Shown here: positions 2,635 through 44,542 of the stretch, piece by piece
How positions within the stretch are numbered: the stretch's first letter is position 1
Layout of the letters: every line of letters begins with the position of its first letter
Origin: Bdellovibrionales bacterium RIFOXYD12_FULL_39_22
GTDB taxonomy: Bacteria > Bdellovibrionota > Bacteriovoracia > Bacteriovoracales > Bacteriovoracaceae
NCBI GenBank assembly: GCA_001770205.1
Contig: MEQL01000019.1
Coordinates: 1 to 45,228 of the forward strand
DNA: 45,228 bases
Reading direction: 5' to 3'
Made by a program: the position numbers and the translations under genes
The notes under the pieces: generated by a model
Seen by the model: only the letters and a program-made list of their open reading frames with translations
Database searches by the model: none
What the model was told of the DNA's origin: nothing

Positions 2635-3764
2635 CGAAGGTTGATAAATTGATCATTCTGGTGAGAAGTGTCGTTAATAAGACTATCTAACTTGTTGAGA
2701 AGATTCTGTGGTTCGCTGTGTATCTTACTAATGAGTTTCTTTGCTTCAATAATATCCGCTGCAGATATTGGAAGGTTATTCAATCTACTTCTATCAATTC
2801 TAGCTAGCACCGACAATAATTCATAGATTGATTTTGTGACTTCTTGCATTTTCGGAGAACCGACCCCTGGTTTAAAATATATACTTTCCTCCAATTCTAG
2901 ATTCAATCGTTTTAGCTCAGTACTTAGCTCTCCCTTTTTATGAAAAAGAAGATTGATATGGCCAGAGATTGTCTCTTCTGCAAGCGAATTAAAAAAGCTT
3001 TTGGGTTCAATAATGCCAGGTTTGATATCTAAAATGGCCTTTAGTCTGGCATTAAAGGCTGTAGCCCTTTGTGAGGATTCTCCATATGTTTTAGAAACAG
3101 CGTCAGTTAATGATTTTGACTTAACCAAAAGCTGTTCGCGAAATTTTTGCCCTTCTGGTTGTGTGAAAAAATAAGCTGTTTTCCGAACAAAATCATTACT
3201 GAGTATTTGAGAAGTATTAAACGCAAAACCCTTATCTATGGCAAAAACAAAACCGTCCTCACCAACCAAAATGTGTTCGGCTTTTGAATAATCAGTATCG
3301 CCAATTAGAATATTAAAAATATTAACCTTACTAAAGTTATTTTGGACTGTTGGAAGAAGTCTCAGCTCGTTAGCAGATCTATTAATCTTTACTTCATCCA
3401 AAAATTCAGAATAATTATACTCGTGCTCAACAAATTGCTGGACGGAAAAAGTTTCATCATTTATCACTTTTTTTACGGTCGGAGGAACCGCATGTAGCTC
3501 CAGTATTTCGCTTACTTCATAAGCCAAAATTTCGCTGGTATGGTCCTGACTAAATCCATCTTTTTTCATAACCGCTCTAACGATTGAATTTCCTTTTTCA
3601 TCAACGAGATCCCCAAGTTGAGCTTTATGCGATCCCATTTTGATTTCTGAAAGAGAATCAATGTTCACCTGTAGTACACTTATTAGACAATCACGCACAG
3701 AACTTGCGTAAGTATTTGTACTCAACAAAATCAAATTAACTAACGCAATATATTTCAGAATCAT
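2631..3764 (-). CDS. Secreted protein with atypical (PI3/PI4-kinase/HipA-like) kinase fold
   Basis: Signal peptide; EILAYEVSEILELHAVPPTV...SVQQFV...ILIGDTD...HILV...AIDKGFAF. Confidence 0.6.
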   Translation of the reverse strand: MILKYIALVNLILLSTNTYASSVRDCLISVLQVNIDSLSEIKMGSHKAQLGDLVDEKGNSIVRAVMKKDGFSQDHTSEILAYEVSEILELHAVPPTVKKVINDETFSVQQFVEHEYNYSEFLDEVKINRSANELRLLPTVQNNFSKVNIFNILIGDTDYSKAEHILVGEDGFVFAIDKGFAFNTSQILSNDFVRKTAYFFTQPEGQKFREQLLVKSKSLTDAVSKTYGESSQRATAFNARLKAILDIKPGIIEPKSFFNSLAEETISGHINLLFHKKGELSTELKRLNLELEESIYFKPGVGSPKMQEVTKSIYELLSVLARIDRSRLNNLPISAADIIEAKKLISKIHSEPQNLLNKLDSLINDTSHQNDQFINLR

Positions 3765-4270
3765 TAGGCTTCTCTTATAGATTAATTCGCTACTAGTCTT
3801 CTCGGTATAATTGTCTGAACACTAAATAGAAAACTGCGCTAAGTGCGCTAAGAGTAATTATGGCGTCAATATTTCCCACAAGTCATATTCATAACCTTTT
3901 GATCGGTTATTTTTTTGACATGCTCAGCACTATTCTAACAATTGGTGATTAATATTTTGTAGATCAAAGAGTTGTATTCCTACCCTGGATATTTCGTATC
4001 AAAGGAGGAACCATTCACCGAAAACCACTCTTCTCTGAGTTCTTTCTCTGTTCTCGAATCAGCAAACCTGAGCAAACATCACCTAATAAAAGATGGGACA
4101 TTTCGGGCGATAACTTGCGTTTCGTTCTGTATGGTATGGTGTTGACGGTTCATGTGACGTTTGACTAAAAAACGAACGAAGTCGTAGACATAATTTTTTC
4201 CTCAACGCTAATATACTGTAAATTTTGAGATTATTTTGTGTTCTTGGTTGTTTCTGGTTCGAGTAAAAAA

Positions 4271-4346
4271 TGGGGTGGCCGATGGGGCTCGAACCCACGA
4301 CAACCAGAACCACAATCTGGCGCTCTACCAACTGAACTACGGCCAC
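4271..4346 (-). tRNA. tRNA-His (GTG)
   Basis: GTGGCCGTAGTTCAGTTGGTAGAGCGCCAGATTGTGGTTCTGGTTGTCGTGGGTTCGAGCCCCATCGGCCACCCCA; encoded CCA; G(-1) at 4347. Confidence 0.98.
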
Positions 4347-9883: not shown

Positions 9884-10814
9884 TTGGAAGTTTGGGCCTG
9901 TTTTTTTGAGTTGCCTTTTAATACTCTCGGCCTGTTTGTCTAAAAAAAGATATGAGGGCCTGGCACTTTTTGAGTCGCAAAGCTATTTGGCCCTTTTGTC
10001 AACATATCGCACACAAGAGGTGAGTTCGGGATACATAAATTCGGCGGAAGAGATTAACCGGCCAGTAAACAGTTGGCAGGCCATTATGCGTTTTGATTTG
10101 AGCAATTCTTCAGATAAGTCCATTTGTTTGTTCTATAAAATACCTTACATTAAAGCAGATAAAAAGATGGAGGGCATTATTTTATTTTCAAAACAGAAGA
10201 AATCTACCGCTTGTAAAAAAGGACACGATGATGGAGAAGAAATTGTTAGGTTAGAAGGAATCCATTCATTAAAAATTTTTCTCAATCCAGCTAATGATTT
10301 TATGGCCAAAGAAAAAAAACAAATTAAAAAAAATAATTTATATTTCATGATATATTATAAAAATATTAAGAGCAGGAGAAATCGTGTTTTGACAAAAAGC
10401 TGGATGGAATTCCCATTATTAAATATTAAAAACATTAATCGTATTGGTGTAACTTATTTGCCCAATTTATCGTTAGAAAATTTGGGGGAAAACAAAAAAA
10501 CGCAAAACCTACCTCAAGGAGAAAGGAATGACAGTTACATCAACAGAACAATCTTAAAGTGCAGTTTGAATTCTGATGCTGATGATAGTTGCGATAAATG
10601 TCGCTTCGGCTGGTATGATGCAATCGGGGATGCTGGCCGTATTGGTTTTTGTGGAGAGAGTCATTGTGGCGAAAGAGGATGGCCTGCCTGTCCACGCACG
10701 GGCATAGTACCAGTAGATGGTAAATTGATTTGTGTTGATGGAAGTGACTTGGGGATTTGTCAGGACGATCTTCATGTTTACTGTGATGAAAATCTGATTC
10801 TTTCCTGCCATTAA
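9873..10814 (+). CDS. Lipoprotein with Cys-rich C-terminus
   Basis: LSAC lipobox; CDKCRFGW...CGESHCGERGWPACP...C...C...C...C. Confidence 0.65.
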   Translation: MKNNWKFGPVFLSCLLILSACLSKKRYEGLALFESQSYLALLSTYRTQEVSSGYINSAEEINRPVNSWQAIMRFDLSNSSDKSICLFYKIPYIKADKKMEGIILFSKQKKSTACKKGHDDGEEIVRLEGIHSLKIFLNPANDFMAKEKKQIKKNNLYFMIYYKNIKSRRNRVLTKSWMEFPLLNIKNINRIGVTYLPNLSLENLGENKKTQNLPQGERNDSYINRTILKCSLNSDADDSCDKCRFGWYDAIGDAGRIGFCGESHCGERGWPACPRTGIVPVDGKLICVDGSDLGICQDDLHVYCDENLILSCH

Positions 10815-10941
10815 AATGATTATTTGTTAATAATATTTGAGCAAAAAGGTCGGAGCGTTTTTATCCTTCCTATTGCTGCAAACTTTTTGCTATTATTACC
10901 TCTTGTAGTTTCAGTGAAAAATTCAACAGGTGGAGTAATAA

Positions 10942-11877
10942 ATGATTGATCAAAACAACAGCAAATCGTTGCTAGCAATTCTTGTCATGGTTTTTGTGTT
11001 TTTTATTATTTTGGTTATTTTTGCGGTTTATACCGTAAAGGCCATGAAGGATAGTGATGATATAAAAACAAGTGTTGATTCCGATGATGCGCAGATTGCC
11101 GTTATAGAAATTTCAGAGGTAATTACTTCTTCCAAGGAGATTGTAGAAAAATTGATCAAGGCAGAAGAGGATAAGGAAATTAAGGCCATTATTGTGCGCA
11201 TTGATTCTCCAGGGGGGACAGTTGGCCCGACACAAGAGATATATGAAGAAATTTTGCGAATTGATGAGGAAAAGCCGGTTTATGCCAGTCTAGGTTCAAT
11301 TGCCGCTAGTGGAGGATATTACATTGCAGCGGCCACAAGAAAAATTTATTCTAACGCTGGAACGCTAACCGGTTCTATTGGTGTTATTATGAATTTTATG
11401 GACTCCTCTAAACTACTAGAGTTTGCGAAATTAGTGCCCAATACTGTTAAGGCCGGAAAATTCAAAGATGTTGGCTCCGGAGAACGTAGCATGACAGAAG
11501 AAGAGAGGGCACTTTTAGAGGGGACGGTTAATAGCGTTCATGAGCAGTTTAAAAATGATATTCTGAAACGGCGAAAGGAAAAGATTACAAAAGATTTTAA
11601 TGAAATTGCCCAAGGCCAAATTTTTTCAGGGCAGGAGGCCTTGTCGCTGGGCCTGGTTGATGCTGTGGCCGGCCTTTGGGCCGCCGGGCGTGCGATTCAC
11701 ACAGAATTAAAATTAAAGGGAGAGTTTAAGCTTCGCTTTTTAAAAGATAAAAAGAAAAATTCATTATGGGATTTAGCAGAGTCCTTAGAAGAATCAATTA
11801 CTGATTTGAAGCTGGGAAATATCCTTGGGCAAAAAACTCTAATGTACCTATACGCCCCACAATTTAGTGGAAAGTGA
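10942..11877 (+). CDS. sppA: Signal peptide peptidase SppA (S49, short form)
   Basis: RIDSPGG, AASGGYYIA, TGSIGV, KAGKFKD. Confidence 0.95.
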   Translation: MIDQNNSKSLLAILVMVFVFFIILVIFAVYTVKAMKDSDDIKTSVDSDDAQIAVIEISEVITSSKEIVEKLIKAEEDKEIKAIIVRIDSPGGTVGPTQEIYEEILRIDEEKPVYASLGSIAASGGYYIAAATRKIYSNAGTLTGSIGVIMNFMDSSKLLEFAKLVPNTVKAGKFKDVGSGERSMTEEERALLEGTVNSVHEQFKNDILKRRKEKITKDFNEIAQGQIFSGQEALSLGLVDAVAGLWAAGRAIHTELKLKGEFKLRFLKDKKKNSLWDLAESLEESITDLKLGNILGQKTLMYLYAPQFSGK

Positions 11878-11913
11878 TAAGAGGAGCATAGAAGAAACAG
11901 GTAAGTTTAAAAG

Positions 11914-13143
11914 ATGGAAATATACACTAATTGGTTACAGACAAATTTATTGGCCATCGTGGCAGTACTCCTTACTTTGATATTAAGCTATCACTATCTG
12001 ATGGAACGAGATACGGGTGTTAAGTTATCTAAAAAATATCGCAATTCTATTTTTGAAGCGCAATCAAAGATTTTCTTAAATGCCACGCAGTATCTTATTT
12101 CCGGCAATAGGGATTTGGCCATTCGAGAATTTTTAAATGCGGTAGATCTCAATCGTGAAACCATTGACACCTATTTTGCGTTGGGTGGACTTTTTAGAAG
12201 TAATGGAGAGATCGATAAGGCCATTAGTATCCATCGTTCGTTAATTGCTCGAGATAATATCTCCGAAGCAACCCGCCTAAAGTCTCTCAAGGAATTAGCA
12301 TTTGATTTTGATAAAGGTGGATTTATAGACAAGGCCATTGAGACTTATCGTGATGTTTTAAAAATAAATCGAGATCAGCAGGATGTGTTGTATGCTATTT
12401 GTCGAATTTATGAGGATATAGAAGACTGGGATCAGGCATATAATTATCGAATGATGCTATCTAAAATTAGCAGCAATAATCAATCGGAAACCATTGCGCA
12501 TATTTTAGTGCAAAAGGCCAAGGCCCTTTTTGAAAAAGGGGATATGGTTCGTTGTTGGGAAGAACTCGAAGAAGCATTTAAGTTTGCGCCTTCGGTCTCA
12601 GCCAATATTTTATGGCTGAGATTATCTTTGGCCAATGGAGATATGGAGAAGGCCCAGGAACTTTTAATGGAGCTTATCAATGCTAATCCAATGTATATCT
12701 CATTTGTTTTTGTGGCCCTCTCTGAACCATTTTCTGCAGATGAGAAAGTTAAAAATGATTACAACACTCGACTTACGTTGTTGAAGAGTTTTTTTGTAAA
12801 ACTAAAAGACAAAGAGCTAACTCCTTCTCCTGCAATTACTTTAGCAAAAGTGCGCTTACTCAAAGAGGAGAATAAAATTAACGAGGCCTATCAGACGCTT
12901 AATGGCCTGGTTTCCAAGGGGAAACAGCTTTCGGAAGTTTTGATGGTAGAATATATTCGTTTGTTGGTTCAGCTGAATAAAACTGAGGAGGCACTAAAAC
13001 GAACAGGGGATTTTTTGTTAAATTTAAACAAATCCCTTACACGTCATTTTTGTAGTCAGTGTGGATATAATTCAGATGAGATTTTTTGGCGATGCCCGCA
13101 GTGTCATGAATGGGAAACGATTCAGTTTAGATGGAAAGTATAA
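11914..13143 (+). CDS. lapB: LPS assembly protein B-like (TM, TPR repeats, rubredoxin-type tail)
   Basis: ALGGLFRSNGEIDKAISIHRSL; CSQCGY...WRCPQCHEWET. Confidence 0.85.
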   Translation: MEIYTNWLQTNLLAIVAVLLTLILSYHYLMERDTGVKLSKKYRNSIFEAQSKIFLNATQYLISGNRDLAIREFLNAVDLNRETIDTYFALGGLFRSNGEIDKAISIHRSLIARDNISEATRLKSLKELAFDFDKGGFIDKAIETYRDVLKINRDQQDVLYAICRIYEDIEDWDQAYNYRMMLSKISSNNQSETIAHILVQKAKALFEKGDMVRCWEELEEAFKFAPSVSANILWLRLSLANGDMEKAQELLMELINANPMYISFVFVALSEPFSADEKVKNDYNTRLTLLKSFFVKLKDKELTPSPAITLAKVRLLKEENKINEAYQTLNGLVSKGKQLSEVLMVEYIRLLVQLNKTEEALKRTGDFLLNLNKSLTRHFCSQCGYNSDEIFWRCPQCHEWETIQFRWKV

Positions 13144-18901: not shown

Positions 18902-20455
18902 ATGAATAACGAAATGAAGCTTTTTTCGACAGATTTAGAATCACTAAAGTCAATTTTGTCGTCAACTTTAGACGAGTCAATATTTTTTAATGAATTAGGC
19001 TCATATCTGAAATTAGCACTACAATCGGACAATTATTTGATCTATATGGCCGGGACTGACCTTGCCACTGCCCGCGCCATATATACCGATAAGTCAGCAA
19101 ACACCGATTTAGAAGTTGCCACCATTGCTGGACACGTTATTCGGAGCAAGCGAGCTTATTTTTCAAATGATTTTGCGAGAGATCCACTTTTTTCTGGGCG
19201 GGCCAATAAGTTAACTCGCGCAGAGCTTTGTGCCCCCATTATGTACGAAGGATTAGTGATTGCAACAGTTCATTTACAAAACAGGGGAGAAAAGCAGTTT
19301 ACGCGTAATGACGTAACTTCCGTTTTAGAAATATTGAGTGGTATTTCCGATCCAATTAAAAACATGCAAATGTACTTATCAGCAAAAGCACTCAACGAGA
19401 TACTTCTTAAAAAACTAGAGATGCAAGAGAATGCCATCGCCGGAAAATTAGAGGTGGTCGTTGAAAGCAATTATCAAATCAAAGAAGGAAAAATAATAAG
19501 CCTGTCAGAGGTAATGAAAAATGCGATCAAATTAAGCGATAAGTTAGCGGCCGCCGGGGTCAATGCATTAATTAGTGGGCCAACAGGCAGCGGACGAGAG
19601 ATGCTGGCCAGAAGAATTCATTGTAGAAGTAGTCGCGCCAGCAGAGCATTTATTGTGGTAGATTGTTCAGTTTTGGCAGAAGGTGCGTTAGAGGTGGAGC
19701 TATTTGGGCGATTGGAAAACTCTATTGCCGGAACAGCTGGGCAGCGTGGACTTTTTGAAGTTGCCAATAATGGAACAATCGTTTTGCGAAATATTCACGC
19801 TATTCCGATAAACTTACAAAATAAACTCAATCGTTATTTGCAAGATGGAACCATTGTGCGAGCAGAGTCATTTGCACAGTACTCTTCTAATGCAAGAATT
19901 TTGGCAATCTCAGATAAAAATTTATTAGACATGGTGGCGGCCGGAACTTTTTCTAAGGCCCTTTATAATGAATTGGCCACAATGATTGTTAATGTTCCCT
20001 CTTTGGTTGAAAGAAAAGTAGATATTGAATCGCTTGCCTCTTATTTTTTAAATGAGAATAAATCCATTGATCAGATGAAATCCCTCTCTCCGGATGCGGT
20101 TAGGTTGTTGGCAGAATATAATTGGCCAGGAAATTTACGAGAACTAAAGAGTGTTATGCAGAGGGCATATATTTTGTCTGATGGCCGTATCATTGAGGCC
20201 GATCATTTGGCCGACAGTGTTGTAATTCTTCCCGAGGAAGATGAAAATAAAGAAGTTACTGATAGAGCTAACGATGCCTCTTCTGTGTTTGTTGAGATGA
20301 CGCTAGGAGATTTAGAGCGTAGGCATATTTGTCAAACCCTAGAATATTTGGCCGGAAATAAAACGAAGGCGGCAAAAGCATTAGGCATTACAGTAAAAAC
20401 ATTATATAACAAACTTCATACCTATGGTTTAATCGCATCTCAGGAGATTCAATAA
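18902..20455 (+). CDS. GAF + sigma54-interaction AAA+ + Fis-HTH regulator with degenerate ATPase motifs
   Basis: ELCAPI GAF; YNWPGNLRELK; GNKTKAAKALGITVKTLYNKL; AGGAG RBS before ATG 18902. Confidence 0.85.
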   Translation: MNNEMKLFSTDLESLKSILSSTLDESIFFNELGSYLKLALQSDNYLIYMAGTDLATARAIYTDKSANTDLEVATIAGHVIRSKRAYFSNDFARDPLFSGRANKLTRAELCAPIMYEGLVIATVHLQNRGEKQFTRNDVTSVLEILSGISDPIKNMQMYLSAKALNEILLKKLEMQENAIAGKLEVVVESNYQIKEGKIISLSEVMKNAIKLSDKLAAAGVNALISGPTGSGREMLARRIHCRSSRASRAFIVVDCSVLAEGALEVELFGRLENSIAGTAGQRGLFEVANNGTIVLRNIHAIPINLQNKLNRYLQDGTIVRAESFAQYSSNARILAISDKNLLDMVAAGTFSKALYNELATMIVNVPSLVERKVDIESLASYFLNENKSIDQMKSLSPDAVRLLAEYNWPGNLRELKSVMQRAYILSDGRIIEADHLADSVVILPEEDENKEVTDRANDASSVFVEMTLGDLERRHICQTLEYLAGNKTKAAKALGITVKTLYNKLHTYGLIASQEIQ

Positions 20456-30714: not shown

Positions 30715-32634
30715 ATGAAATTAATAAATAGAATATTCGCTACAATTATTTTTTTAATATTTTTGGCAGCATGTGGAGAAAAAGTGCTGGTGATTATTCC
30801 CGATGATTACATAACAATTCCACCACCCAGTTTAGATATTAAGTTAGATCACTATGATAGCTGCCAAGAGTTGGTAGATGAACTTAAGGAACAGGTGCAA
30901 GAAAAAAGAAAAATTGAAAATTCCGCCTATGACGACTGTAAGAGCGAAGCTTGTGCTCAAATTGAAGTAGTGCCGGAGGCAAGTCTATCTGACAGAACTT
31001 TGCATACCAATGTTCAAGTCAGTGGTATCGATGAAGGGGATAGATACAAAGTCGGTGCTGAGCAAATATATATTTTAAATCCAGGATATCTGGAAGTCTT
31101 TGCACGACATTCACTAAAGTACCTCGGAGATATTGAGCTAAACGGTATTAAGTCAGGAGTTATTTTAACATACGAAAAAAAAATCGTAGTCATTGGGCAG
31201 TTGCAAAACAATCGAGTGAGGGCCGTGATAATGCAACATACTGGTAATAATAAAATACCAGAAATAATATCAACCACAGAGTATACAGGCAATTATCGGG
31301 AGAGTCGACTGGTTGATGGACGACTATATTTTCTAGTGCAAGATGAACAATTGCTTTCCGTTATCGAAAATAACAATGTAGATGATAGCGTGATAGACGA
31401 TTATGTGAACACACTGGGAGAGGAAATATCTTGTACTTCCGTTGTGAAAAGAAATTATGCTGACTTTGATTATAGATTTAATAAAATAATAGAAATGGAT
31501 TTGTCTAATGAAAAAAGTAATAACGATGAACTCGTTTTTATTGGAGGAGGAGATCACTTTTATATGACAGATAGCGAGCTTCTATTAATTAAACAAGAAA
31601 TCAAATGGTATCAATTGTTCGGGTCCTTCCTTCCAGGGCAATGGCCTCAGAAAGTTTTTATTTTTCGCATATCTGTTGTCGGAGAAATGCAATACACTGG
31701 AGCGGGTGAGGTGGAGGGTAATATCAAAGATAGATGGGGGGTGAAAACCTACGATGATGGCATTCTCTCTTTAGTAGTTTCGCAAAATGATAATATGGCA
31801 TTATTTAATGAACAAAACTATGTAAAGGTTTTGTCCTTTAATGATGAAAAAAATCGCTACGAAGAGAAATCGATGGTCGGCCCATTTGGAATAAATGAAG
31901 AAATTAAGGCCGTGCGATATATCGGCGAAATGCTTTATGCTGTAACATACAGACTGATAGATCCCGTTTTTGCAATTGATATGTCTGACTTAGATAATCC
32001 CAAGCTTCTTTCTAGTTTAGAAATTCCTGGTTTTTCTTTTTACCTACACCCTATTGATGAAAATATAATGGGTGGTGTTGGATTTTCAGAAAGCGGCAGA
32101 ATAGAGATATCACTATTTGATACAACAGTGCCATCTGCTGTTGAAAGATTTTTTAATTATTCGTTAAGTGAAGAAAATTTAAACACGGAAGTCATGAATA
32201 ATCCGCAAGCATTTTTCTATGGCCAGGATGTGCAATTATTAGCAATTCCCATAAGAAAAAGTGCTGGTTCTCCAGAAATTTTTTCTCCAGAAATGTTTCC
32301 CATAATAAAAAGTGCTGGGTCTCCAGAAATTTCATCACGGCCAACATCCGGGGCCTTATTTTTAAAGAGGGATGGGGAAGTGTTGATTGAGGCCGGCATT
32401 GTCTCTCATGATGAAATTATTCCGCAACGTTGTAAAAAAATTTGGTACAATGAATTTGATATTGATAGAATTTTTGAAGTAGATGGCCGTGTTATTACTA
32501 TTTCTAATTTCGGAATTAAGGAGCACAACCCAACAGAAATAAGCGAGACGTTAATGGTCTCTTCAATTAATGCAAATGCGGCCAAAATTGAGGCCATTTG
32601 TGTTAAAAATGGATATTGGCAAATAGGTGAATAG
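30715..32634 (+). CDS. Lipoprotein with secreted beta-propeller domain (Beta_propel-like)
   Basis: LAAC lipobox; TNVQVSGIDEGD; AVRY...YAVTYRLIDPVFAID...LEIPGFSFYLHP. Confidence 0.85.
   Translation: MKLINRIFATIIFLIFLAACGEKVLVIIPDDYITIPPPSLDIKLDHYDSCQELVDELKEQVQEKRKIENSAYDDCKSEACAQIEVVPEASLSDRTLHTNVQVSGIDEGDRYKVGAEQIYILNPGYLEVFARHSLKYLGDIELNGIKSGVILTYEKKIVVIGQLQNNRVRAVIMQHTGNNKIPEIISTTEYTGNYRESRLVDGRLYFLVQDEQLLSVIENNNVDDSVIDDYVNTLGEEISCTSVVKRNYADFDYRFNKIIEMDLSNEKSNNDELVFIGGGDHFYMTDSELLLIKQEIKWYQLFGSFLPGQWPQKVFIFRISVVGEMQYTGAGEVEGNIKDRWGVKTYDDGILSLVVSQNDNMALFNEQNYVKVLSFNDEKNRYEEKSMVGPFGINEEIKAVRYIGEMLYAVTYRLIDPVFAIDMSDLDNPKLLSSLEIPGFSFYLHPIDENIMGGVGFSESGRIEISLFDTTVPSAVERFFNYSLSEENLNTEVMNNPQAFFYGQDVQLLAIPIRKSAGSPEIFSPEMFPIIKSAGSPEISSRPTSGALFLKRDGEVLIEAGIVSHDEIIPQRCKKIWYNEFDIDRIFEVDGRVITISNFGIKEHNPTEISETLMVSSINANAAKIEAICVKNGYWQIGE
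32246..32332 (+). repeat. In-frame imperfect duplication, 51-bp period
   Basis: ttcccataa[g/t]aaaaagtgctgg[t/g]tctccagaaattt at 32246 and 32297; encodes PIRKSAGSPEI...PIIKSAGSPEI. Confidence 0.85.
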
Positions 32635-36732: not shown

Positions 36733-37053
36733 ATGGAGATTGTTGTACTAAAGCAGGCAAAAAAAGAGTTAAAAGATGGGCCCAAAGAATTGATGGTGGA
36801 CATTTATTCACTTTTCGACGACCTGTCACACGGAAAATCTTTAGGAATGCCAATCTCACGGCCACTAACATCGATAGCAAGTGGATTACATGAGCTACGA
36901 TTATCTGGCAGGGCCGGAGAATTTCGAGTGTTTTATTTTATTAAAATTGGCGACGCGATTTATATAGTCCACGCCTGCTCTAAAAAGAAACAGAGCATTG
37001 ATAAAAGAACGACCGATCTGCTGAGAAGTAGAATTAGGAGTATAAATTTATGA
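36733..37053 (+). CDS. RelE/Gp49-like (HigB-type) toxin
   Basis: LGMPISRPL...GLHELRL...EFRVFY...IVHACSKKKQ. Confidence 0.85.
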   Translation: MEIVVLKQAKKELKDGPKELMVDIYSLFDDLSHGKSLGMPISRPLTSIASGLHELRLSGRAGEFRVFYFIKIGDAIYIVHACSKKKQSIDKRTTDLLRSRIRSINL

Positions 37054-37346
37054 AAGAGACTCAAACAAAATTTAAAAGTTCAAATGAGTTTGGATCATTC
37101 TTGGGTCTATCTGAATTGGAAATGGCCATTATTCAGCAAAAGAAAAAGCTCATCGAGAAATTAAAAAAATCTCGCGTCGAGCATGGACTTTCTCAAGCGG
37201 AACTTGCTCAGATGGTTCAAACGAAGCAACCAGCAATTGCACGAATGGAGTCTGGTCTGGTAAGTGAAGTTAGTTTTGATTTCCTTGCAAAGGTTGCACT
37301 AGTTTTAGATGTATCATTTACTTTTAAAAGATTAAAGGCTGCCTAA
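37050..37346 (+). CDS. XRE-family HTH antitoxin (HigA-type)
   Basis: GLSQAELAQMVQTKQPAIARMESG; 4-nt overlap with the toxin. Confidence 0.85.
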   Translation: MKETQTKFKSSNEFGSFLGLSELEMAIIQQKKKLIEKLKKSRVEHGLSQAELAQMVQTKQPAIARMESGLVSEVSFDFLAKVALVLDVSFTFKRLKAA

Positions 37347-37534
37347 AACTATTTTTCGAATGTAATTCCACCGATTCAAAATTGGTTAAAAGTTAATTAA
37401 AAGTCAGTTAAAACTCAAATTCTCCATGCCCTATTGGAAGTATTGGCGGCATCCAGGTAGAATTTTTTGTAAACGAAAAAATGTCAGCTAACTATTGCCA
37501 ATCACTTGCCAAAGAGGCCCGACCTGTTTTTTTT

Positions 37535-37664
37535 CGGCTAATTTTCCCCAATCATTTACGGCAATTAAAGGATCGCATTTTTTGACCACCCCTCCTAACG
37601 AAAAACGGAGGCGGTGGTCAAAAAGATGCTTACTAATTGCTAGATTGATTGGGGTTTATGGCCG
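37535..37664 (+). other. Long interrupted hairpin, copy 1 (structured RNA or ssDNA element)
   Basis: Nested pairings cggcta/tggccg, ccccaatc/gattgggg, ggcaatta/taattgct, gcattttttgaccacc/ggtggtcaaaaagatgc, cctcc/ggagg; homologous to 40272-40414. Confidence 0.75.
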
Positions 37665-37803
37665 TGATAGAGAACAAAATTCAAAGTGAGGGGACTAATT
37701 ATTCTAGGACAGATTCCAAAAACAAAAAAGTGAGGAAGTTAAATTATTGCGATGAGAATGAAAATATAGTGGGAGTTCTACAAAAAAAATTAATACTAAG
37801 AGG

Positions 37804-37958
37804 ATAGAATAAATTGGTGCAGGCCAAATCATAGTCTTGGTGAGTTGATAAAATTTCAATAGCATAAGTTAACGAAATAGCTCCTCAGCTCGACTGACAA
37901 TGCATCTCATCATTAAGGTACTCACGCCTGCGGGCCTGACAATTGGCCCGGCGTGATC
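37804..37958. repeat. About 155-bp dispersed repeat, copy A, ending in a GC-rich hairpin
   Basis: Aligns with 44165-44321 (tagaataaat...gccaaatcatagtc...agctcctc...aatgcat...gtactcacgcc..gggcc..acaattggcccggcgtgatc). Confidence 0.85.
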
Positions 37959-38119
37959 GTTATAATTATACCTCACCATCGTGTAGTAAAATAATTACAA
38001 TCTACTAATTTATGGAGGTGGCCAGTGAAGTTGCTTCTCAATTTTTGCGATCATGCTCAGACGAGCTCGCTTTTCCGAGCATTGTTCACTTTCCGCCAGC
38101 GATTGTGGCCATCTACCAC

Positions 38120-39340: not shown

Positions 39341-39515
39341 ACTTTAAAATTTTATCTATCGGTTTTGTTAAAAGGAAATTCTGGTGGCGGCCATATAGTT
39401 GTCTAGCCGCAGCTCAAAAACATTTAAGAGGCCCTCCTCGCCTTTCAGAGGAGATTTTCGTGGATAAGTGTGTCTTGTTAGTTTGGCACATTCTATTCCA
39501 AAGGATTGGTGTTGT

Positions 39516-40220
39516 ATGAGAAAATGCTATTTTGCGCCGGAGGGTGTTTATGTCGACATTCTCGATCACATTGCGCAGTGGCGAATTTTAGATTGTAAAA
39601 CGCTGTTTGAAATGTTGGGGAACGAACTCAGTTACAACAACTTTCTAAAAAAACTTAGAAAGCTGGAGACGGCCAATCTCATCAAGAGCACGTTTGTTGG
39701 CAACCAAACTAAGCACATCTTTCTTACCAACAAGGGAGTCAAGTGGTCGGGATTGGAGGTCGGCCATGAGCTAACCGACGCACACGTTATGCACGATTTA
39801 ACGATGGGAGTGGTGCTTAGAGCGATGATCGCCACCGGAAAATTTACGGACAGCACTATTTTCTATGAGGGATATTCCAAACACTACAACCCCGACGCCA
39901 AGATATTTTGGTTGCCTGATAAGTCGCCTGTTGAGATGGACATTGAGATTGAACTGACGCAAAAAAGTAAGTCGCGCATTAGCTGGAAATTTAGAAGTTG
40001 TGAGGAAAGTCGGTCGTCTAAATACTGCATCTACTTCACCAACAAGCGGGGACTATATGAAACATATTGTGAAGTTTTGCAGGAATCACCAGAGAAGGTG
40101 CAGGAAAAAATTGTGATAGTGTACGATGAAACGTTGTCGACTACAGCATGCGATTTGAACAAGGCCGTAAGTTTTTATAAGCAAAAAGAAAAATCATTCA
40201 GCGATTTATTTAAGATTTAA
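39516..40220 (+). CDS. Replication-relaxation-like protein (winged HTH plus PD-(D/E)xK-type domain)
   Basis: KKLRKLETANLI...IFLTNKG (wHTH); HDL; PDA...IEIELTQKSKSRI..K. Confidence 0.65.
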   Translation: MRKCYFAPEGVYVDILDHIAQWRILDCKTLFEMLGNELSYNNFLKKLRKLETANLIKSTFVGNQTKHIFLTNKGVKWSGLEVGHELTDAHVMHDLTMGVVLRAMIATGKFTDSTIFYEGYSKHYNPDAKIFWLPDKSPVEMDIEIELTQKSKSRISWKFRSCEESRSSKYCIYFTNKRGLYETYCEVLQESPEKVQEKIVIVYDETLSTTACDLNKAVSFYKQKEKSFSDLFKI

Positions 40221-40271
40221 ATAACGTTCCAATGTGTGTCCACTCTTTGGCCACTCTTGGATTCTATTAAT

Positions 40272-40414
40272 TTCCCCCGTCCAATTTTCACCAATTATTT
40301 TCGGCAATTAAGGAATCGCAATTCTTGACCATCCCCCTCCCACCAAGTTGGATGGGTATGGTCAAGAAGTTGCTTACCTATTGCCAGGTTTTGTTGGTGA
40401 TTAGGGCCGGGGAA
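40272..40414 (+). other. Long interrupted hairpin, copy 2, between the Replic_Relax-like gene and the Xis-like gene
   Basis: ttcccc/ggggaa, tcaccaat/gttggtga, ggcaat/attgcc, gcaattcttgaccat/atggtcaagaagttgc. Confidence 0.75.
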
Positions 40415-40447
40415 GAGAGGAAGAAATTCCAAAGGAGAAATTGATTT

Positions 40448-40822
40448 ATGTTAGGTGTGATTAATAATTTAGAAAGTGATGAGTTAGATTTAGATGGGGT
40501 GATGGGAAATATTACTGAGGAGCATCAGAAAAAATATTCATTGGGAGATGAGATGATTTCAAGAGAGGAGATGTTTTATTCAAATTTGTTACGGGAGATT
40601 TTAGATCAAGAGGAGCGAGATAAATTTGTGCCCTCATCGCTTTTAACTTTCGATAAGACGATGAGATTATTGCGACTTGATCCGCATTTTCACAATGACA
40701 GACAAAAATTATATCGCCTCTGCTTCCACCGAAAACTTGAGTACATCAAACGCGGCAAGCAGTCCTTCTTCACTAAGTCAGCGATTGAACAGTATCTAAA
40801 AGATCAAACCGTCAGACGATAA
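40448..40822 (+). CDS. Excisionase-like HTH protein
   Basis: LLTFDKTMRLL...QKLYRLCFHRKLEYIKRGKQSFFTKSAIEQYL resembles HTH_17; AAGGAG RBS; upstream of the integrase. Confidence 0.65.
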   Translation: MLGVINNLESDELDLDGVMGNITEEHQKKYSLGDEMISREEMFYSNLLREILDQEERDKFVPSSLLTFDKTMRLLRLDPHFHNDRQKLYRLCFHRKLEYIKRGKQSFFTKSAIEQYLKDQTVRR

Positions 40823-40948
40823 AAAAGTAACAGTCAGTTGAGGTTAATTGCTTCTTGTGGTAATAGTTTTACTATTGCTCTTTTACATTCAAATATTGGG
40901 AGACAGATAGACGAGAAGCAAAGAACCTCACTACTATTGGAGGATTCT

Positions 40949-42074
40949 ATGCAAAAAATTAAAAGAAGAACTGGAGTTATATTTCGGGAAGAGATTGTTA
41001 TTGATGGTGTCAGGTACACTCGCTGTGCTAATCGCAAAGAGGATTTGAAGCGCTGGAAGCGCAAACTATTAACGGAGAGAGATACCCACAATGTATTGGG
41101 CATAGTTGTTAATCGGCAAATGCTTTTTTCAGATTTTGCTCAGACATATATCGAAAGAAAGATTCGCAAGAATCTGGCAACGTCGACCATCACCAACTAC
41201 CGACTCTACCTCAAAAATCATCTCCTGTGATCAAGGACACCAAGCTCTTTGATGTTACCAAAGCACAGGCGGAGAAGATCATTGATAAGATGCGCGCGAG
41301 TCATTCCAAGAAAGGATCAATGACGTCATTGGTTTTCTGAAGGCGATTTTAAATGAGGCGGTAAAGAGCGATCTGCTAGTCAAGTCCCCTCTGCACGGAT
41401 TAGATTGCCTGAAGGAAGAAAAAAGTAGCGTCAACTATTGGGCCGAATCGGAGATTAATACATTCTTGGAGCGCAATGCACAGGATAGAAATTTTCTGCT
41501 CTATCTTTTGGCCATCAACACGGGGATGCGACGAGGTGAGCTTTGTGGACTAAAATGGGCGCAGGTGAATTTTCACACAGGACTCATTGAAGTAATTGGC
41601 AACCTTACTCGCTTTGGATTGGGTGCCACCAAAACAAACTTAATTCGCTACATTCCGATGAATTTACGGGTGCGACAGTATCTGCTGCTGGCCTTGAAGT
41701 CCCGTAAATCAGAGTTTGTCCTGAGCGGTGAGGATAATCGGCCTTATGACACCAACCACGTTTACAGAAACTTTGCTGATGCCTGTAAGCGAGCTGGCGT
41801 CCGCCAAATCCGCTTTCACGATCTGCGACATACTTTTGCCAGCCAGTTCATGATGAAGGGGGGAAACATCTACGATCTGCAAAATATTCTAGGCCACACG
41901 TCGCTAAATATGACTCAGCGGTATGCGCATTTGAGTCCGGCCTACCTGGCCGGGAAAACGGAGATATTAAACTTCGGAGGAGCGCCTGAAAGTGCAACCG
42001 AAAGTGAGAGTCCCACATATTCCCCACACGGCCAGTTTTCTAAGGTAAATCTTACTTTGGAAAAAGTGATCTAA
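40949..42074 (+). pseudogene. Tyrosine integrase with two frameshifts (near 41226 and 41314)
   Basis: GGAGGA RBS at ATG 40949; frames join as ..KNHLL/PVIKDTKL..SKKG/INDVIGFLKAILNEAV..; catalytic TGMRRGEL, TKT, FHDLRH, LGH, RYAH all present. Confidence 0.88.
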
Positions 42075-42146: not shown

Positions 42147-42373
42147 GCCAAGGCCATGATTTCATAGACAAGCATGGTTCAAAATAGTTAGCAATAAAAC
42201 AACGTAGGCAACTAGAATCAAAGAATTTTTTATTAATTATCGAGTAAGCATTTATCGTTTGCAATATTTAATTGTTCACAATTTTCGTCTAAGTTGAACC
42301 ACTAATGAACCACGGCCACTGCAAAAACCAACAAGAGATACGGACTTTTGTGGTCTGGGCACCATTACCATGA

Positions 42374-42402
42374 TTGACAAATTTGTCAAGTTGTGCAATA
42401 AT
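42374..42402 (+). promoter_or_regulatory. Promoter/operator for TA operon 2
   Basis: Perfect palindrome ttgacaaatttgtcaa (42374-42389) containing TTGACA; N17; AATAAT (42397-42402). Confidence 0.7.
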
Positions 42403-42408
42403 AGACAA

Positions 42409-42711
42409 ATGCAGGAGAGAACAGAGTATCCTCTGAAATTAACAATTAACGGAAGATCAGTTTCTCGAGTCATTATCGATCAGCATTACAGGATTGCTCA
42501 TTCAGATATCGATGATGCACTAATTCTCAAGCTGGTGATGGAGCTAAATCTTGGCAACTATCCTATTGAGAACGAGAAAGACGGTTTTGAATATTTTGTC
42601 GTAGAACCCGTTATCCACGACGATAAACCATATCGGCTAGTACTACTACTTTGCGTACATGACGATTTTCTAGGCGTGGTAAACGCTTTTAGAGTTAGGA
42701 GGCGAAAATGA
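42409..42711 (+). CDS. Putative toxin of a toxin-first TA-like pair
   Basis: Small protein IDQHY...PYRLVLLL...GVVNAFRV; 4-nt overlap with an XRE gene; start chosen from promoter position. Confidence 0.55.
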   Translation: MQERTEYPLKLTINGRSVSRVIIDQHYRIAHSDIDDALILKLVMELNLGNYPIENEKDGFEYFVVEPVIHDDKPYRLVLLLCVHDDFLGVVNAFRVRRRK

Positions 42712-43019
42712 AAAATTTTCCTTCAAAAGAAGAATTAGAAGAAGTCCGCAATAACTTGGACAAAGGTATTGCATCTCGGCCGTTACCAAAAAATGCTTCG
42801 CACATCGATCGCATCAAATACCGCCTTTGCGAGAAATTTGTAATTTACAAAAACAGCAAAAAGTTAACACAACGCGAGCTGGCCAAATTAGTTGATGTCG
42901 ACGAGGCCATTATGAGTAAAATTTTGCACTATCACTTCAGTGAATTTACAACCGACCGACTAATAAAATACCTAGCACAAATCTACGACGAAATAGATTT
43001 CAATGTAAATGTCGCTTAA
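42708..43019 (+). CDS. XRE-family HTH protein, putative antitoxin
   Basis: LTQRELAKLVDVDEAIMSKILHYHFSEFTTDRLIKYL. Confidence 0.8.
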   Translation: MKNFPSKEELEEVRNNLDKGIASRPLPKNASHIDRIKYRLCEKFVIYKNSKKLTQRELAKLVDVDEAIMSKILHYHFSEFTTDRLIKYLAQIYDEIDFNVNVA

Positions 43020-43625: not shown

Positions 43626-43809
43626 CGTCTTAGCGAGAATTAAATCCTTGGCCACCAAACACTTTTTTGACTAACAAATTCAGGAATTCATAAACCTTTA
43701 TATACTCCCTCGAGTATAAATATCAAACCGAGTTCGGTTCAATAACTACAACAGGCCATTGAATAGTTTTCAAATCAGACCGATAATAAAATTGTCAGGA
43801 GGTGGCCAC

Positions 43810-44139
43810 ATGAGAACAGATTTGAATGAACTAAAAAATTTTCTCGAATACGATTTTAACAAGAAAATGGAGTTCAATCCACAATACTACAAGAAGGCAT
43901 TTGCTCGCGATCTTGGAATAAGTGCCACGGCACTAAATGAGTTTCTCGCAGGAAAAAGAGAACTGAGCTATAAAAACATCAACACAGTTTTTCGCTATAT
44001 TAATTCTAGAGTTCACTGCTCTTGGTGCGATCGCCATAAAGATAATACAAAGTTTCTTATCCAAGGCCCGAGAAATCAGTACATCTGTAACATCTGCGTC
44101 GACAAGTGTAACGAAATCGTCCGAGACTACTGTCGCTAA
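43810..44139 (+). CDS. HTH fused to a ClpX-type C4 zinc finger
   Basis: GGAGG RBS; NPQYYKKAFARDLGISATALNEFLAGKRELS plus CSWCDR...LIQGP...ICNICVDKCNEI. Confidence 0.8.
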   Translation: MRTDLNELKNFLEYDFNKKMEFNPQYYKKAFARDLGISATALNEFLAGKRELSYKNINTVFRYINSRVHCSWCDRHKDNTKFLIQGPRNQYICNICVDKCNEIVRDYCR

Positions 44140-44164: not shown

Positions 44165-44321
44165 ATAGAATAAATGGGAGCAAGCCAAATCATAGTCCCA
44201 ACGCGTTGAGAAAAATTCCAGAAGCACGAGTTACAAAAAACAGCTCCTCGCCTCAAATAATAATGCATTTCATGATCAATGTACTCACGCCCGTGGGCCC
44301 CACAATTGGCCCGGCGTGATC
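44165..44321. repeat. About 155-bp dispersed repeat, copy B
   Basis: Aligns with 37804-37958 in the same orientation. Confidence 0.85.
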
Positions 44322-44542
44322 TTTTTAACAGTAATTGCTAGCATGATCAGAAATGCTCCAAGAACTAAAACTCTAATTATAATCCAGGAAACTTTTTAAC
44401 CCAGCGTACTAATCAATTGTAGCATAATCATCTCTTTACTGTATCTGGTGCTGGTCATAATGTATAAAGAGCTAGATTAAAGAGTCTGTTGACCAAAGTA
44501 GCAGGCATCCACCAATAATTTAATGCTTATGGAGGAAATAAT

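Follow-up and report, generated by a model that had tools for sequence, protein, structure and literature searches.

The window analysed here, the whole 45,228-nt stretch of contig MEQL01000019.1 of Bdellovibrionales bacterium RIFOXYD12_FULL_39_22, contains two diverged versions of one rod-like palindrome of ~140 nt, which we refer to as copy 1 and copy 2 of the hairpin. We examined the hairpin as a candidate origin of transfer (oriT), together with the gene adjacent to copy 2, which encodes a relaxase-like protein of 234 amino acids (aa). Copy 2 begins 53 nt past the stop codon of this gene, and the ribosome-binding site (RBS) of a 124-aa open reading frame (ORF) with an excisionase-like (Xis-like) domain follows directly after the hairpin. 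A sequence-only reading of the same DNA had placed copy 2 correctly between a "Replic_Relax-like" gene and the RBS of a Xis-like gene. The features of the window are listed in Table 1.

Table 1. Positions of the features of the window that are referred to in the text.
Feature	Position	Strand	Remarks
Hairpin (large inverted repeat), copy 2	40273-40416		candidate oriT
Core of copy 2	TGACC 40326-40330, GGTCA 40360-40364
Hairpin (large inverted repeat), copy 1	37530-37671		orphan copy
Core of copy 1	TGACC 37583-37587, GGTCA 37616-37620
MOB_C-like relaxase gene	39516..40220	+	predicted winged helix and PD-(D/E)xK domain; 234 aa from ATG
Three phased 7-mers, CCAATGT, CCACTCT, CCACTCT	40229..40257	+	11-nt spacing; candidate relaxase binding site
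Phased 7-mers, CAGCTAA, TTGCCAA, TTGCCAA	37485..37512	+	5' of copy 1
124-aa ORF	40448..40822	+	C-terminal HTH_17 (excisionase-like); Pfam E 4e-4, under the gathering score
Tyrosine integrase, broken	40838..42074	+	two ORFs in different frames (Pfam)
Integrase, first piece	40838-41230		SAM-like N-terminal part; weak Phage_int_SAM_3 match
Integrase, second piece	41466-42074		catalytic domain; Phage_integrase E 2e-33
~165-nt direct repeats	37804-37970, 44165-44333
Toxin-antitoxin-like pair	36733-37346		Gp49/HigB-like and HTH_3
Toxin-antitoxin-like pair	42370-43019		113-aa ORF of unknown type and HTH_37
HTH and ClpX-type zinc-finger ORF	43759-44139
60-nt inverted repeat	895-954, 4219-4278
tRNA-His gene	4271-4346	-
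36-nt direct repeat	32246-32281, 32297-32332
Beta-propeller gene	30715-32634

The two copies were 80% identical across 200 nt, with a mean column identity of 85% across the hairpin in the alignment, and the homology ended at the 5' base of the hairpin and extended ~35 nt beyond its 3' base. RNA minimum free energy folding gave a single long imperfect rod for each copy. The + strands of copies 1 and 2 folded at -62.4 and -65.8 kcal/mol (z -9.5 and -7.7, respectively), the - strands were nearly as stable (z -8.8 and -6.7), and none of 200 shuffles folded as well for either copy on either strand. The RNAalifold consensus of the two copies contained 39 pairs, 6 of which were altered on both sides, including cCcc/ggGg versus cAcc/ggTg, and left a G unpaired in each 3' arm. 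R1, a covariance model trained on the window copies alone, retrieved only copies 1 and 2 from the 45-kb window (E 2e-38 and 4e-36), and the next best match had an E value of 0.83. These results indicate that the hairpin is genuine and well beyond chance. The sequence-only reading had reported two diverged homologues with the same rod-like fold, a bulged G in the 3' arm and compensatory changes at the cCcc/ggGg pair and at three central pairs. Its account of homology and fold agrees with the coordinates, the alignment, the z-scores and R1, and the bulged G, the cCcc/ggGg pair and two of the central pairs reappeared in the consensus; the third central pair, C-G versus T-A beside TTGACCA, is visible in the two sequences. 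Its remark that the hairpin matches no family that it recognised also stood: at the gathering score Rfam gave no match at either hairpin, and a search relaxed to an E value of 10 added only chance-level matches, the best of which reached 21 bits where the gathering score is 230. A blastn search of copy 2 against plasmid and phage collections returned nothing meaningful.

The 234-aa protein gave only a weak winged-helix match in Pfam, and an alternative GTG start at 39468 would extend it to 250 aa. A word-based search with this protein found near-identical relatives only, tblastn against plasmids gave no match, and an exhaustive HMMER search found 194 cluster representatives at E ≤1e-3. In 61 aligned sequences, D127, E144 and E146 were invariant, K150 was present in 60, and P126 was nearly invariant; this pattern is, as predicted from the alignment, a PD-(D/E)xK motif. 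Pfam Replic_Relax (PF13814) was matched by 9 of the 61 family members. When the family profile was aligned by hhalign with the "replication-relaxation family protein" of the pAD1-like plasmid pTEF1, a TraX homologue, the probability was 94.8% (E 5e-8) over 172 columns, and the catalytic motif was in register with EIELTMK of the pTEF1 protein. The earlier label "Replic_Relax-like" is therefore right at the family level. The AlphaFold model of the 234-aa protein had a predicted local distance difference test (pLDDT) score of 94; its best fold match in the PDB was FokI (E 6e-4), followed by YaeQ, other PD-(D/E)xK folds and winged helix-turn-helix (HTH) regulators. PF13814 is given in PMC5357655 as the MOB_C relaxase superfamily. 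TraX of pAD1 is described in PMC12857230 and PMC6736028 as having an N-terminal winged helix and a restriction-enzyme-like PD-(D/E)XK domain with a DEE motif and as binding five direct repeats 70-120 bp from nic, and these accounts report no clear covalent DNA intermediate for it.

To examine the family more widely, we gathered 46 loci from species-representative genomes via the 13 closest relatives of the 234-aa protein. Nearly all of them belonged to Bdellovibrionota (Bacteriovoracaceae, Halobacteriovoraceae, metagenome-assembled genomes of Bdellovibrio and one Halobacteriovorax isolate). R1 gave a + strand match at E ≤0.01 just past the stop codon of the relaxase gene in 24 of the 46 loci and weaker or truncated matches in further loci, and folding of the downstream DNA at the loci that R1 had missed revealed the same core in 12 more. 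A second covariance model, R2, was built for the core from 42 sequences and matched 42 of the 46 loci (E ≤6e-7), each at a single site and always with a higher score on the + strand; 40 of these 42 loci had trained R2, and the other two, L044 and L045, were independent of the training. In 41 loci the core was on the 3' side of the relaxase-like gene, irrespective of whether xis-int followed. In regards to L045, the core (2313-2376) was upstream of the match to the relaxase gene (2792-3229), in the same relative orientation. R2 scored copy 2 of the window at 61.6 bits and copy 1 at 43.6 bits.

The genes around the hairpin were assigned by testing 139 ORFs against Pfam, namely the largest ORF abutting the relaxase start and up to three downstream ORFs per locus of 75-125 aa or ≥300 aa; several integrase-sized ORFs lay outside these three, and eight loci ended too soon for the downstream genes to be assessed. 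Coupling-protein domains were found in 30 of the 35 ORFs upstream of the relaxase gene. Downstream, single-stranded DNA-binding protein (SSB) was matched in at least 19 loci, HTH_17 in at least 24 and Phage_integrase in at least 25. The usual order was TrbI-like and other type IV secretion system (T4SS) genes, a coupling protein of ~500 aa, the relaxase, phased direct repeats, the hairpin, an ORF referred to as orf134, SSB, an HTH_17 excisionase and a tyrosine integrase; a TrbI-like gene was also present in L007 (Halobacteriovorax sp. CON-3). The hairpin sits exactly at the junction of a transfer module and an ssb-xis-int module, and the related loci are integrative conjugative elements of Bdellovibrionota.

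Two further observations were made on these elements. The first gene after the hairpin in the complete elements is an ORF of ~134 aa (e.g., 7898-8302 in L002 and 7896-8300 in L004), which is 55-72% identical among 8 loci, has no Pfam family and carries a KKRGRKPKN motif that is AT-hook-like by reading; its product may be a relaxosome accessory protein. In L007, a pair of genes for an AAA_21 ATPase and an RloB-like protein lies right after the integrase (10246-12226) and is probably defence-type cargo.

Two parts of the hairpin were conserved throughout the family, namely the apical stem and the basal stem (commonly CGCCCCTGCC/GGCAGGGGCG); the middle differed wholly in sequence between subfamilies with its self-complementarity kept. 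MAFFT and RNAalifold recovered only the basal and apical stems from 25 full-length hairpins. Because the middle is too diverged for sequence alignment, covariation was counted on the core alone. In the core alignment, TGACC/GGTCA was invariant except in L021 (TAACC/GGTTA) and in four loci with TGACT/AGTCA, where the change in one arm was compensated in the other, AC stood 11 nt past TGACC, and the TGACC-GGTCA spacing was 27-31 nt in 38 of 39 distinct hairpins and 36 nt in that of L043. In a 16-pair structure over 42 cores, 91.5% of the cells paired, as compared with 70.2% in column shuffles (none of 500 reached the observed value) and 38-52% when the partner was slid. Changes on both sides were seen at 13 of the 16 pairs, in 133 cells, and as the core sequences are related these counts are not independent events. 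With the flanking genes tabulated, both the covariation and the linkage to rep, xis and int among homologues, on which the sequence-only reading had hung its proposal, proved to be strong, and they point to a DNA site of a known kind.

Strong fold z-scores and compensatory changes are also what would be seen in a cis-acting structured RNA, whether a leader, an attenuator or a processing site in a relaxase-to-int mRNA, or a small non-coding RNA. The next start codon is ~25 nt from the hairpin in the relatives, the hairpin would be transcribed if the genes are co-transcribed, and the position of the RBS behind copy 2 would suit a leader. The sequence-only reading had offered this as one option, a candidate new structured RNA or xis-int leader, and had taken G-U mismatches to point to folding of the + strand. 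The strand argument did not hold. Both strands of the window copies fold about equally, and the relatives lean to the - strand, which was the more stable in 35 of the 39 distinct hairpins as DNA and in 30 as RNA; among the 555 mismatches over the whole arms, the wobble type accounted for 63 when read on the + strand and for 98 when read on the - strand, with no excess over random mismatches. Moreover, G-U occurred in 2 of 639 core cells of a heavily covarying helix. Strict Watson-Crick covariation with neither wobble enrichment nor a preference for the + strand looks like the pattern of a DNA palindrome and is untypical of an RNA helix. The invariant TGACC/GGTCA and the fixed apex spacing suggest that a protein recognises the DNA, a terminator-like T run is missing downstream of the hairpin in copy 2, L004 and L002, and Rfam gave no match. 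The core tracks the relaxase gene, and the same core recurs in pTEF1 upstream of traX, not before xis-int. We therefore consider an RNA function to be a quite improbable explanation of the hairpin and do not maintain the proposal of a new structured RNA.

Phased direct repeats of two or three 6-8-nt words at 10-12-nt spacing were found between the stop codon of the relaxase gene and the hairpin. The repeat sequence varied by subfamily (AGTTAA-like, GGTAATG, GCAACAA and, in copy 2 of the window, CCACTCT). The repeats beat 95% of shuffles in 23 of 42 sequences; scores of ≥18/21 were obtained 8 times upstream of the hairpin, and neither downstream nor in the in-gene control. In the closest cluster, the repeat offsets were fixed at -36, -25 and -15 from the hairpin. 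In regards to the window, the repeats of copy 2 scored 17/21, which was reached by 0 of 100 shuffles, and those of copy 1, whose sequence is unlike that of the copy 2 repeats, scored 15/21, which was reached by 3 of 100; each set consists of two good repeats and one poor one.

These repeats bear on the reading of the hairpin as a recipient-side single-stranded DNA element, i.e., a lagging-strand priming site (single-strand origin or initiation site, sso/ssi) or an Frpo-like promoter for ssb-xis-int, since such an element would leave them unexplained. The hairpin does precede ssb in 19 loci and int in 25, and the - strand arm of copy 2 contains TTGCGA-16-AATAAT, with a -10-like hexamer in an internal loop. 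However, hexamer pairs of this kind occurred at chance level (2 sites against 1.2 expected), the hexamers of copy 1 were weaker, and the hairpins of L004 and L002 had no counterpart. An Frpo-like promoter was accordingly rejected: among the three hairpins scanned (copy 2, L004 and L002), hexamers were present in copy 2 only. Origins of the ssoA type carry RS_B and CS-6 motifs and are linked to a gene for the Rep protein of rolling-circle replication (RCR). The Pfam matches included no RCR Rep gene, and the linkage of the hairpin is to the relaxase gene. We regard a primary role on single-stranded DNA as unlikely; it could be a secondary role of an oriT hairpin.

A stem-spacer-stem shape with an unpaired base had led the sequence-only reading to compare the hairpin with attC, and the proximity of xis-int would also suit such a site. 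A folded or palindromic recombination site of the neighbouring tyrosine integrase (attP-, attC- or CTX-like) is nevertheless very unlikely. The elements are integrated within long chromosomal contigs and contain one intact copy in their interior, between the transfer genes and int and ≥1 kb from int, and not at their ends, to which a double-strand attP would have been split. Moreover, the core of L044 lies beside a serine recombinase and not a tyrosine integrase, that of pTEF1 has no integrase nearby, and the invariant positions are TGACC/GGTCA and AC, not GTT/AAC. It is still less credible, and indeed barely so, that the hairpin is a miniature mobile palindrome (like a miniature inverted-repeat transposable element or a repetitive extragenic palindrome) that is there by chance. 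Two copies within 3 kb of the window, with terminal stems resembling inverted ends, would fit such an element, but the 42 loci have one copy each, at the same gene and in the same orientation, and no further copies were found in the 45-kb window and none in the plasmid or phage collections.

In pTEF1, a composite palindrome of ~142 bp (19498-19639) lies between the coupling-protein gene and the traX-like gene, with arms of 18 and 25 nt that are both 100% complementary, and five 12-nt direct repeats are found at 19658-19735. Read in the orientation of traX, the inner arm has TGACC with AC 11 nt later and matches the pattern TGACC-N11-AC-N5-35-GGTCA, which is also present on the + strand at the apex in 36 Bdellovibrionota loci. 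Copy 2 fits this pattern, for which 0.01 matches per window are expected by chance; copy 1 does not, as its TGACC-to-AC spacing is 10 nt instead of 11. R2 also matched the pTEF1 palindrome, at 28.1 bits (E 2.9e-4), as its sole match in that 50-kb stretch. The oriT2 of pAD1 was reportedly described by Francia and Clewell in 2002 as a large inverted repeat with nic inside.

Taken together, these results make it likely that the hairpin forms the large inverted repeat of an oriT on which the MOB_C-type relaxase encoded beside it acts. This assignment rests on the homology of the relaxase, the linkage and orientation of gene and hairpin, palindromic covariation, conservation of the core and similarity to a region of a pAD1-type plasmid. 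We infer from sequence the binding of the repeats, the nicking, the strand that would be cut and any residual function of the window copies. In the proposed mechanism, the phased direct repeats, two or three in number and immediately 5' of the palindrome, would be bound by the winged helix. The ~140-bp palindrome would be extruded or melted, and the nuclease domain would make a single-strand nick close to the invariant TGACC-N11-AC...GGTCA apex, at a distance of some 70-110 bp from the repeats. The nicked strand would then pass to the T4SS by way of the coupling protein encoded next door. Among the alternatives offered by the sequence-only reading, a nick site tied to the Replic_Relax-like protein is the one that fits best. 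On this reading, the finding adds a new lineage to a kind of DNA element that is already known and does not define a new class of RNA.

Several observations weigh against this assignment. The 234-aa protein of the window itself falls below Pfam Replic_Relax, and its residue 162 is C in place of the Y found in 57 of 61 relatives. Pfam analysis of the window ORFs found neither a T4SS nor a coupling protein. The phased repeats were not significant in 19 of the 42 sequences, and 4 of the 46 loci had no core match (L041, L042, L046 and L018, the last of which has only 40 nt of contig beyond the gene). The hairpin was sampled only at loci chosen through relatives of the relaxase, plus copy 1. The match of R2 to the pTEF1 palindrome was modest, and E values of R2 are rough. 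MobC of CloDF13 is placed in the MOB_C family in a table of PMC12857230; the CloDF13 record gave no R2 match and no core pattern, and its relaxase ORF was not recognisable in the annotation or among the ORFs. Furthermore, the hairpin is probably also transcribed and may have an added role at the RNA level.

In regards to the condition of the window copies, we consider both to sit in relics of decayed elements, or in elements that are at best mobilisable in trans, because the window lacks a T4SS and coupling protein, its integrase is split, and its relaxase is without the conserved Tyr. The 88% relative of the window protein has Gly at residue 162, where the pTEF1 TraX homologue has an aligned Tyr; the change to C162 may have inactivated the relaxase, which would agree with the broken integrase. 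The element of copy 2 has no ssb, and its 124-aa Xis-like ORF found no relatives in a word-based protein search and is unrelated (17% identity) to orf134, the conserved ORF in that position in the relatives. The sequence-only reading had placed the hairpin upstream of xis-int in two copies, which holds for copy 2 and fails for copy 1: the latter has no relaxase, xis or int adjoining, has a Gp49/HTH_3 toxin-antitoxin pair (Pfam) upstream, and is followed ~130 nt later by a separate 165-nt repeat.

This repeat is one of two diverged direct repeats of ~165 nt that are ~80% identical and 6.36 kb apart. Both terminate in a GC-rich hairpin (CACGCC..GGGCC / GGCCCGGCGTG), and the island with copy 2 ends at the second of them. 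The repeats may be the right ends of two tandem decayed elements; no such repeat was present in any of the 48 fetched loci. Small toxin-antitoxin-like pairs lie on the upstream side of copy 1 and beyond the broken integrase, and an ORF with HTH and ClpX-type zinc-finger domains lies shortly before the second repeat. Most of the remaining window, from 4.5 to 33 kb, consists of housekeeping genes, e.g., Tol-Pal, exonuclease VII and proteases. Near its start, a 60-nt inverted repeat with 97% complementarity flanks a 3.3-kb segment that includes a 377-aa ORF and AbiEi/AbiEii toxin-antitoxin genes. The tRNA-His gene overlaps one arm of the repeat with its 3' end, and the segment looks like an insertion or an invertible segment at that gene. 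A 36-nt direct repeat (94% identical, 51 nt apart) lies inside the beta-propeller gene, in its 3' part, and probably arose by a short duplication of coding sequence.

The MOB_C family is the least understood of the relaxase families. Its members are described in PMC12857230 and PMC6736028 as restriction-enzyme-like enzymes that bind far from nic, with no clear covalent intermediate reported there. The 42 diverged pairs of gene and site provide a comparative set for these relaxases, which separates fixed positions (TGACC, AC, GGTCA and the apex spacing) from those that need only to pair; the fixed positions therefore point to the likely site of enzyme action. We also put forward, tentatively and with more doubt than belief, that the TGACC-N11-AC...GGTCA palindrome with one-sided repeats is an ancient signature of MOB_C oriT sites, from plasmids of Bacillota to elements of Bdellovibrionota, and the actual substrate of the relaxase. 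With the winged helix anchored on the repeats, the PD-(D/E)xK domain would then cut the extruded hairpin or cruciform at its apex, like FokI or a junction resolvase, with no covalent intermediate. If this is so, the invariant apex predicts the nic site of relaxases whose mechanism is unclear, and the signature could be used to search for further oriT sites that, like copy 1, are orphans. The loci document a family of conjugative elements in the predatory Bdellovibrionota, and our literature search found no paper on transfer origins or conjugative elements in this group. They also illustrate that strong covariation in a hairpin may mark a DNA site, for which the near absence of G-U pairs is the tell-tale.

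Three known systems besides CloDF13 were compared with the Bdellovibrionota elements. FokI-type enzymes, which gave the best structural match, likewise join a recognition domain to a PD-(D/E)xK domain that cuts at a distance, and by analogy this bind-here-cut-there logic would fit repeats lying 70-110 bp from the apex; however, the global TM-score was only 0.27 and there was no sequence similarity, so that the analogy is one of architecture and not of family membership. The streptococcal IME_Class_8 elements, as presented in PMC5357655, share the compact order of coupling protein (VirD4), PF13814 relaxase and excision/integration genes, although they use serine integrases, whereas those of the Bdellovibrionota elements are mostly tyrosine integrases.

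The third counterpart is the oriT of the Enterococcus pheromone plasmids pAD1 and pAM373, whose MOB_C relaxase is TraX, as represented here by the pAD1-like pTEF1, and it differs from the Bdellovibrionota elements in several respects. pTEF1 is a plasmid from another host phylum, whereas the Bdellovibrionota elements are integrative. The order in pTEF1 is coupling protein, repeats, palindrome and traX, as against coupling protein, relaxase, repeats and palindrome in Bdellovibrionota, where only L045 resembles pTEF1 in having the core upstream of the relaxase gene. TGACC and GGTCA are separated by 45 nt in pTEF1, as compared with 27-31 nt in Bdellovibrionota (36 nt in L043), and the repeats are five of 12 nt in the former and two or three of ~7 nt at 10-12-nt spacing in the latter. 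Both systems, however, have a Replic_Relax relaxase of the PD-(D/E)xK type with an N-terminal winged helix, as described for pAD1 in PMC12857230 and PMC6736028 and as predicted here. Both also have an adjacent coupling-protein gene and a palindrome of ~140 bp; in gene orientation, short phased repeats precede the palindrome on its 5' side, and the TGACC-N11-AC...GGTCA core faces the same way with respect to the relaxase gene in both systems.

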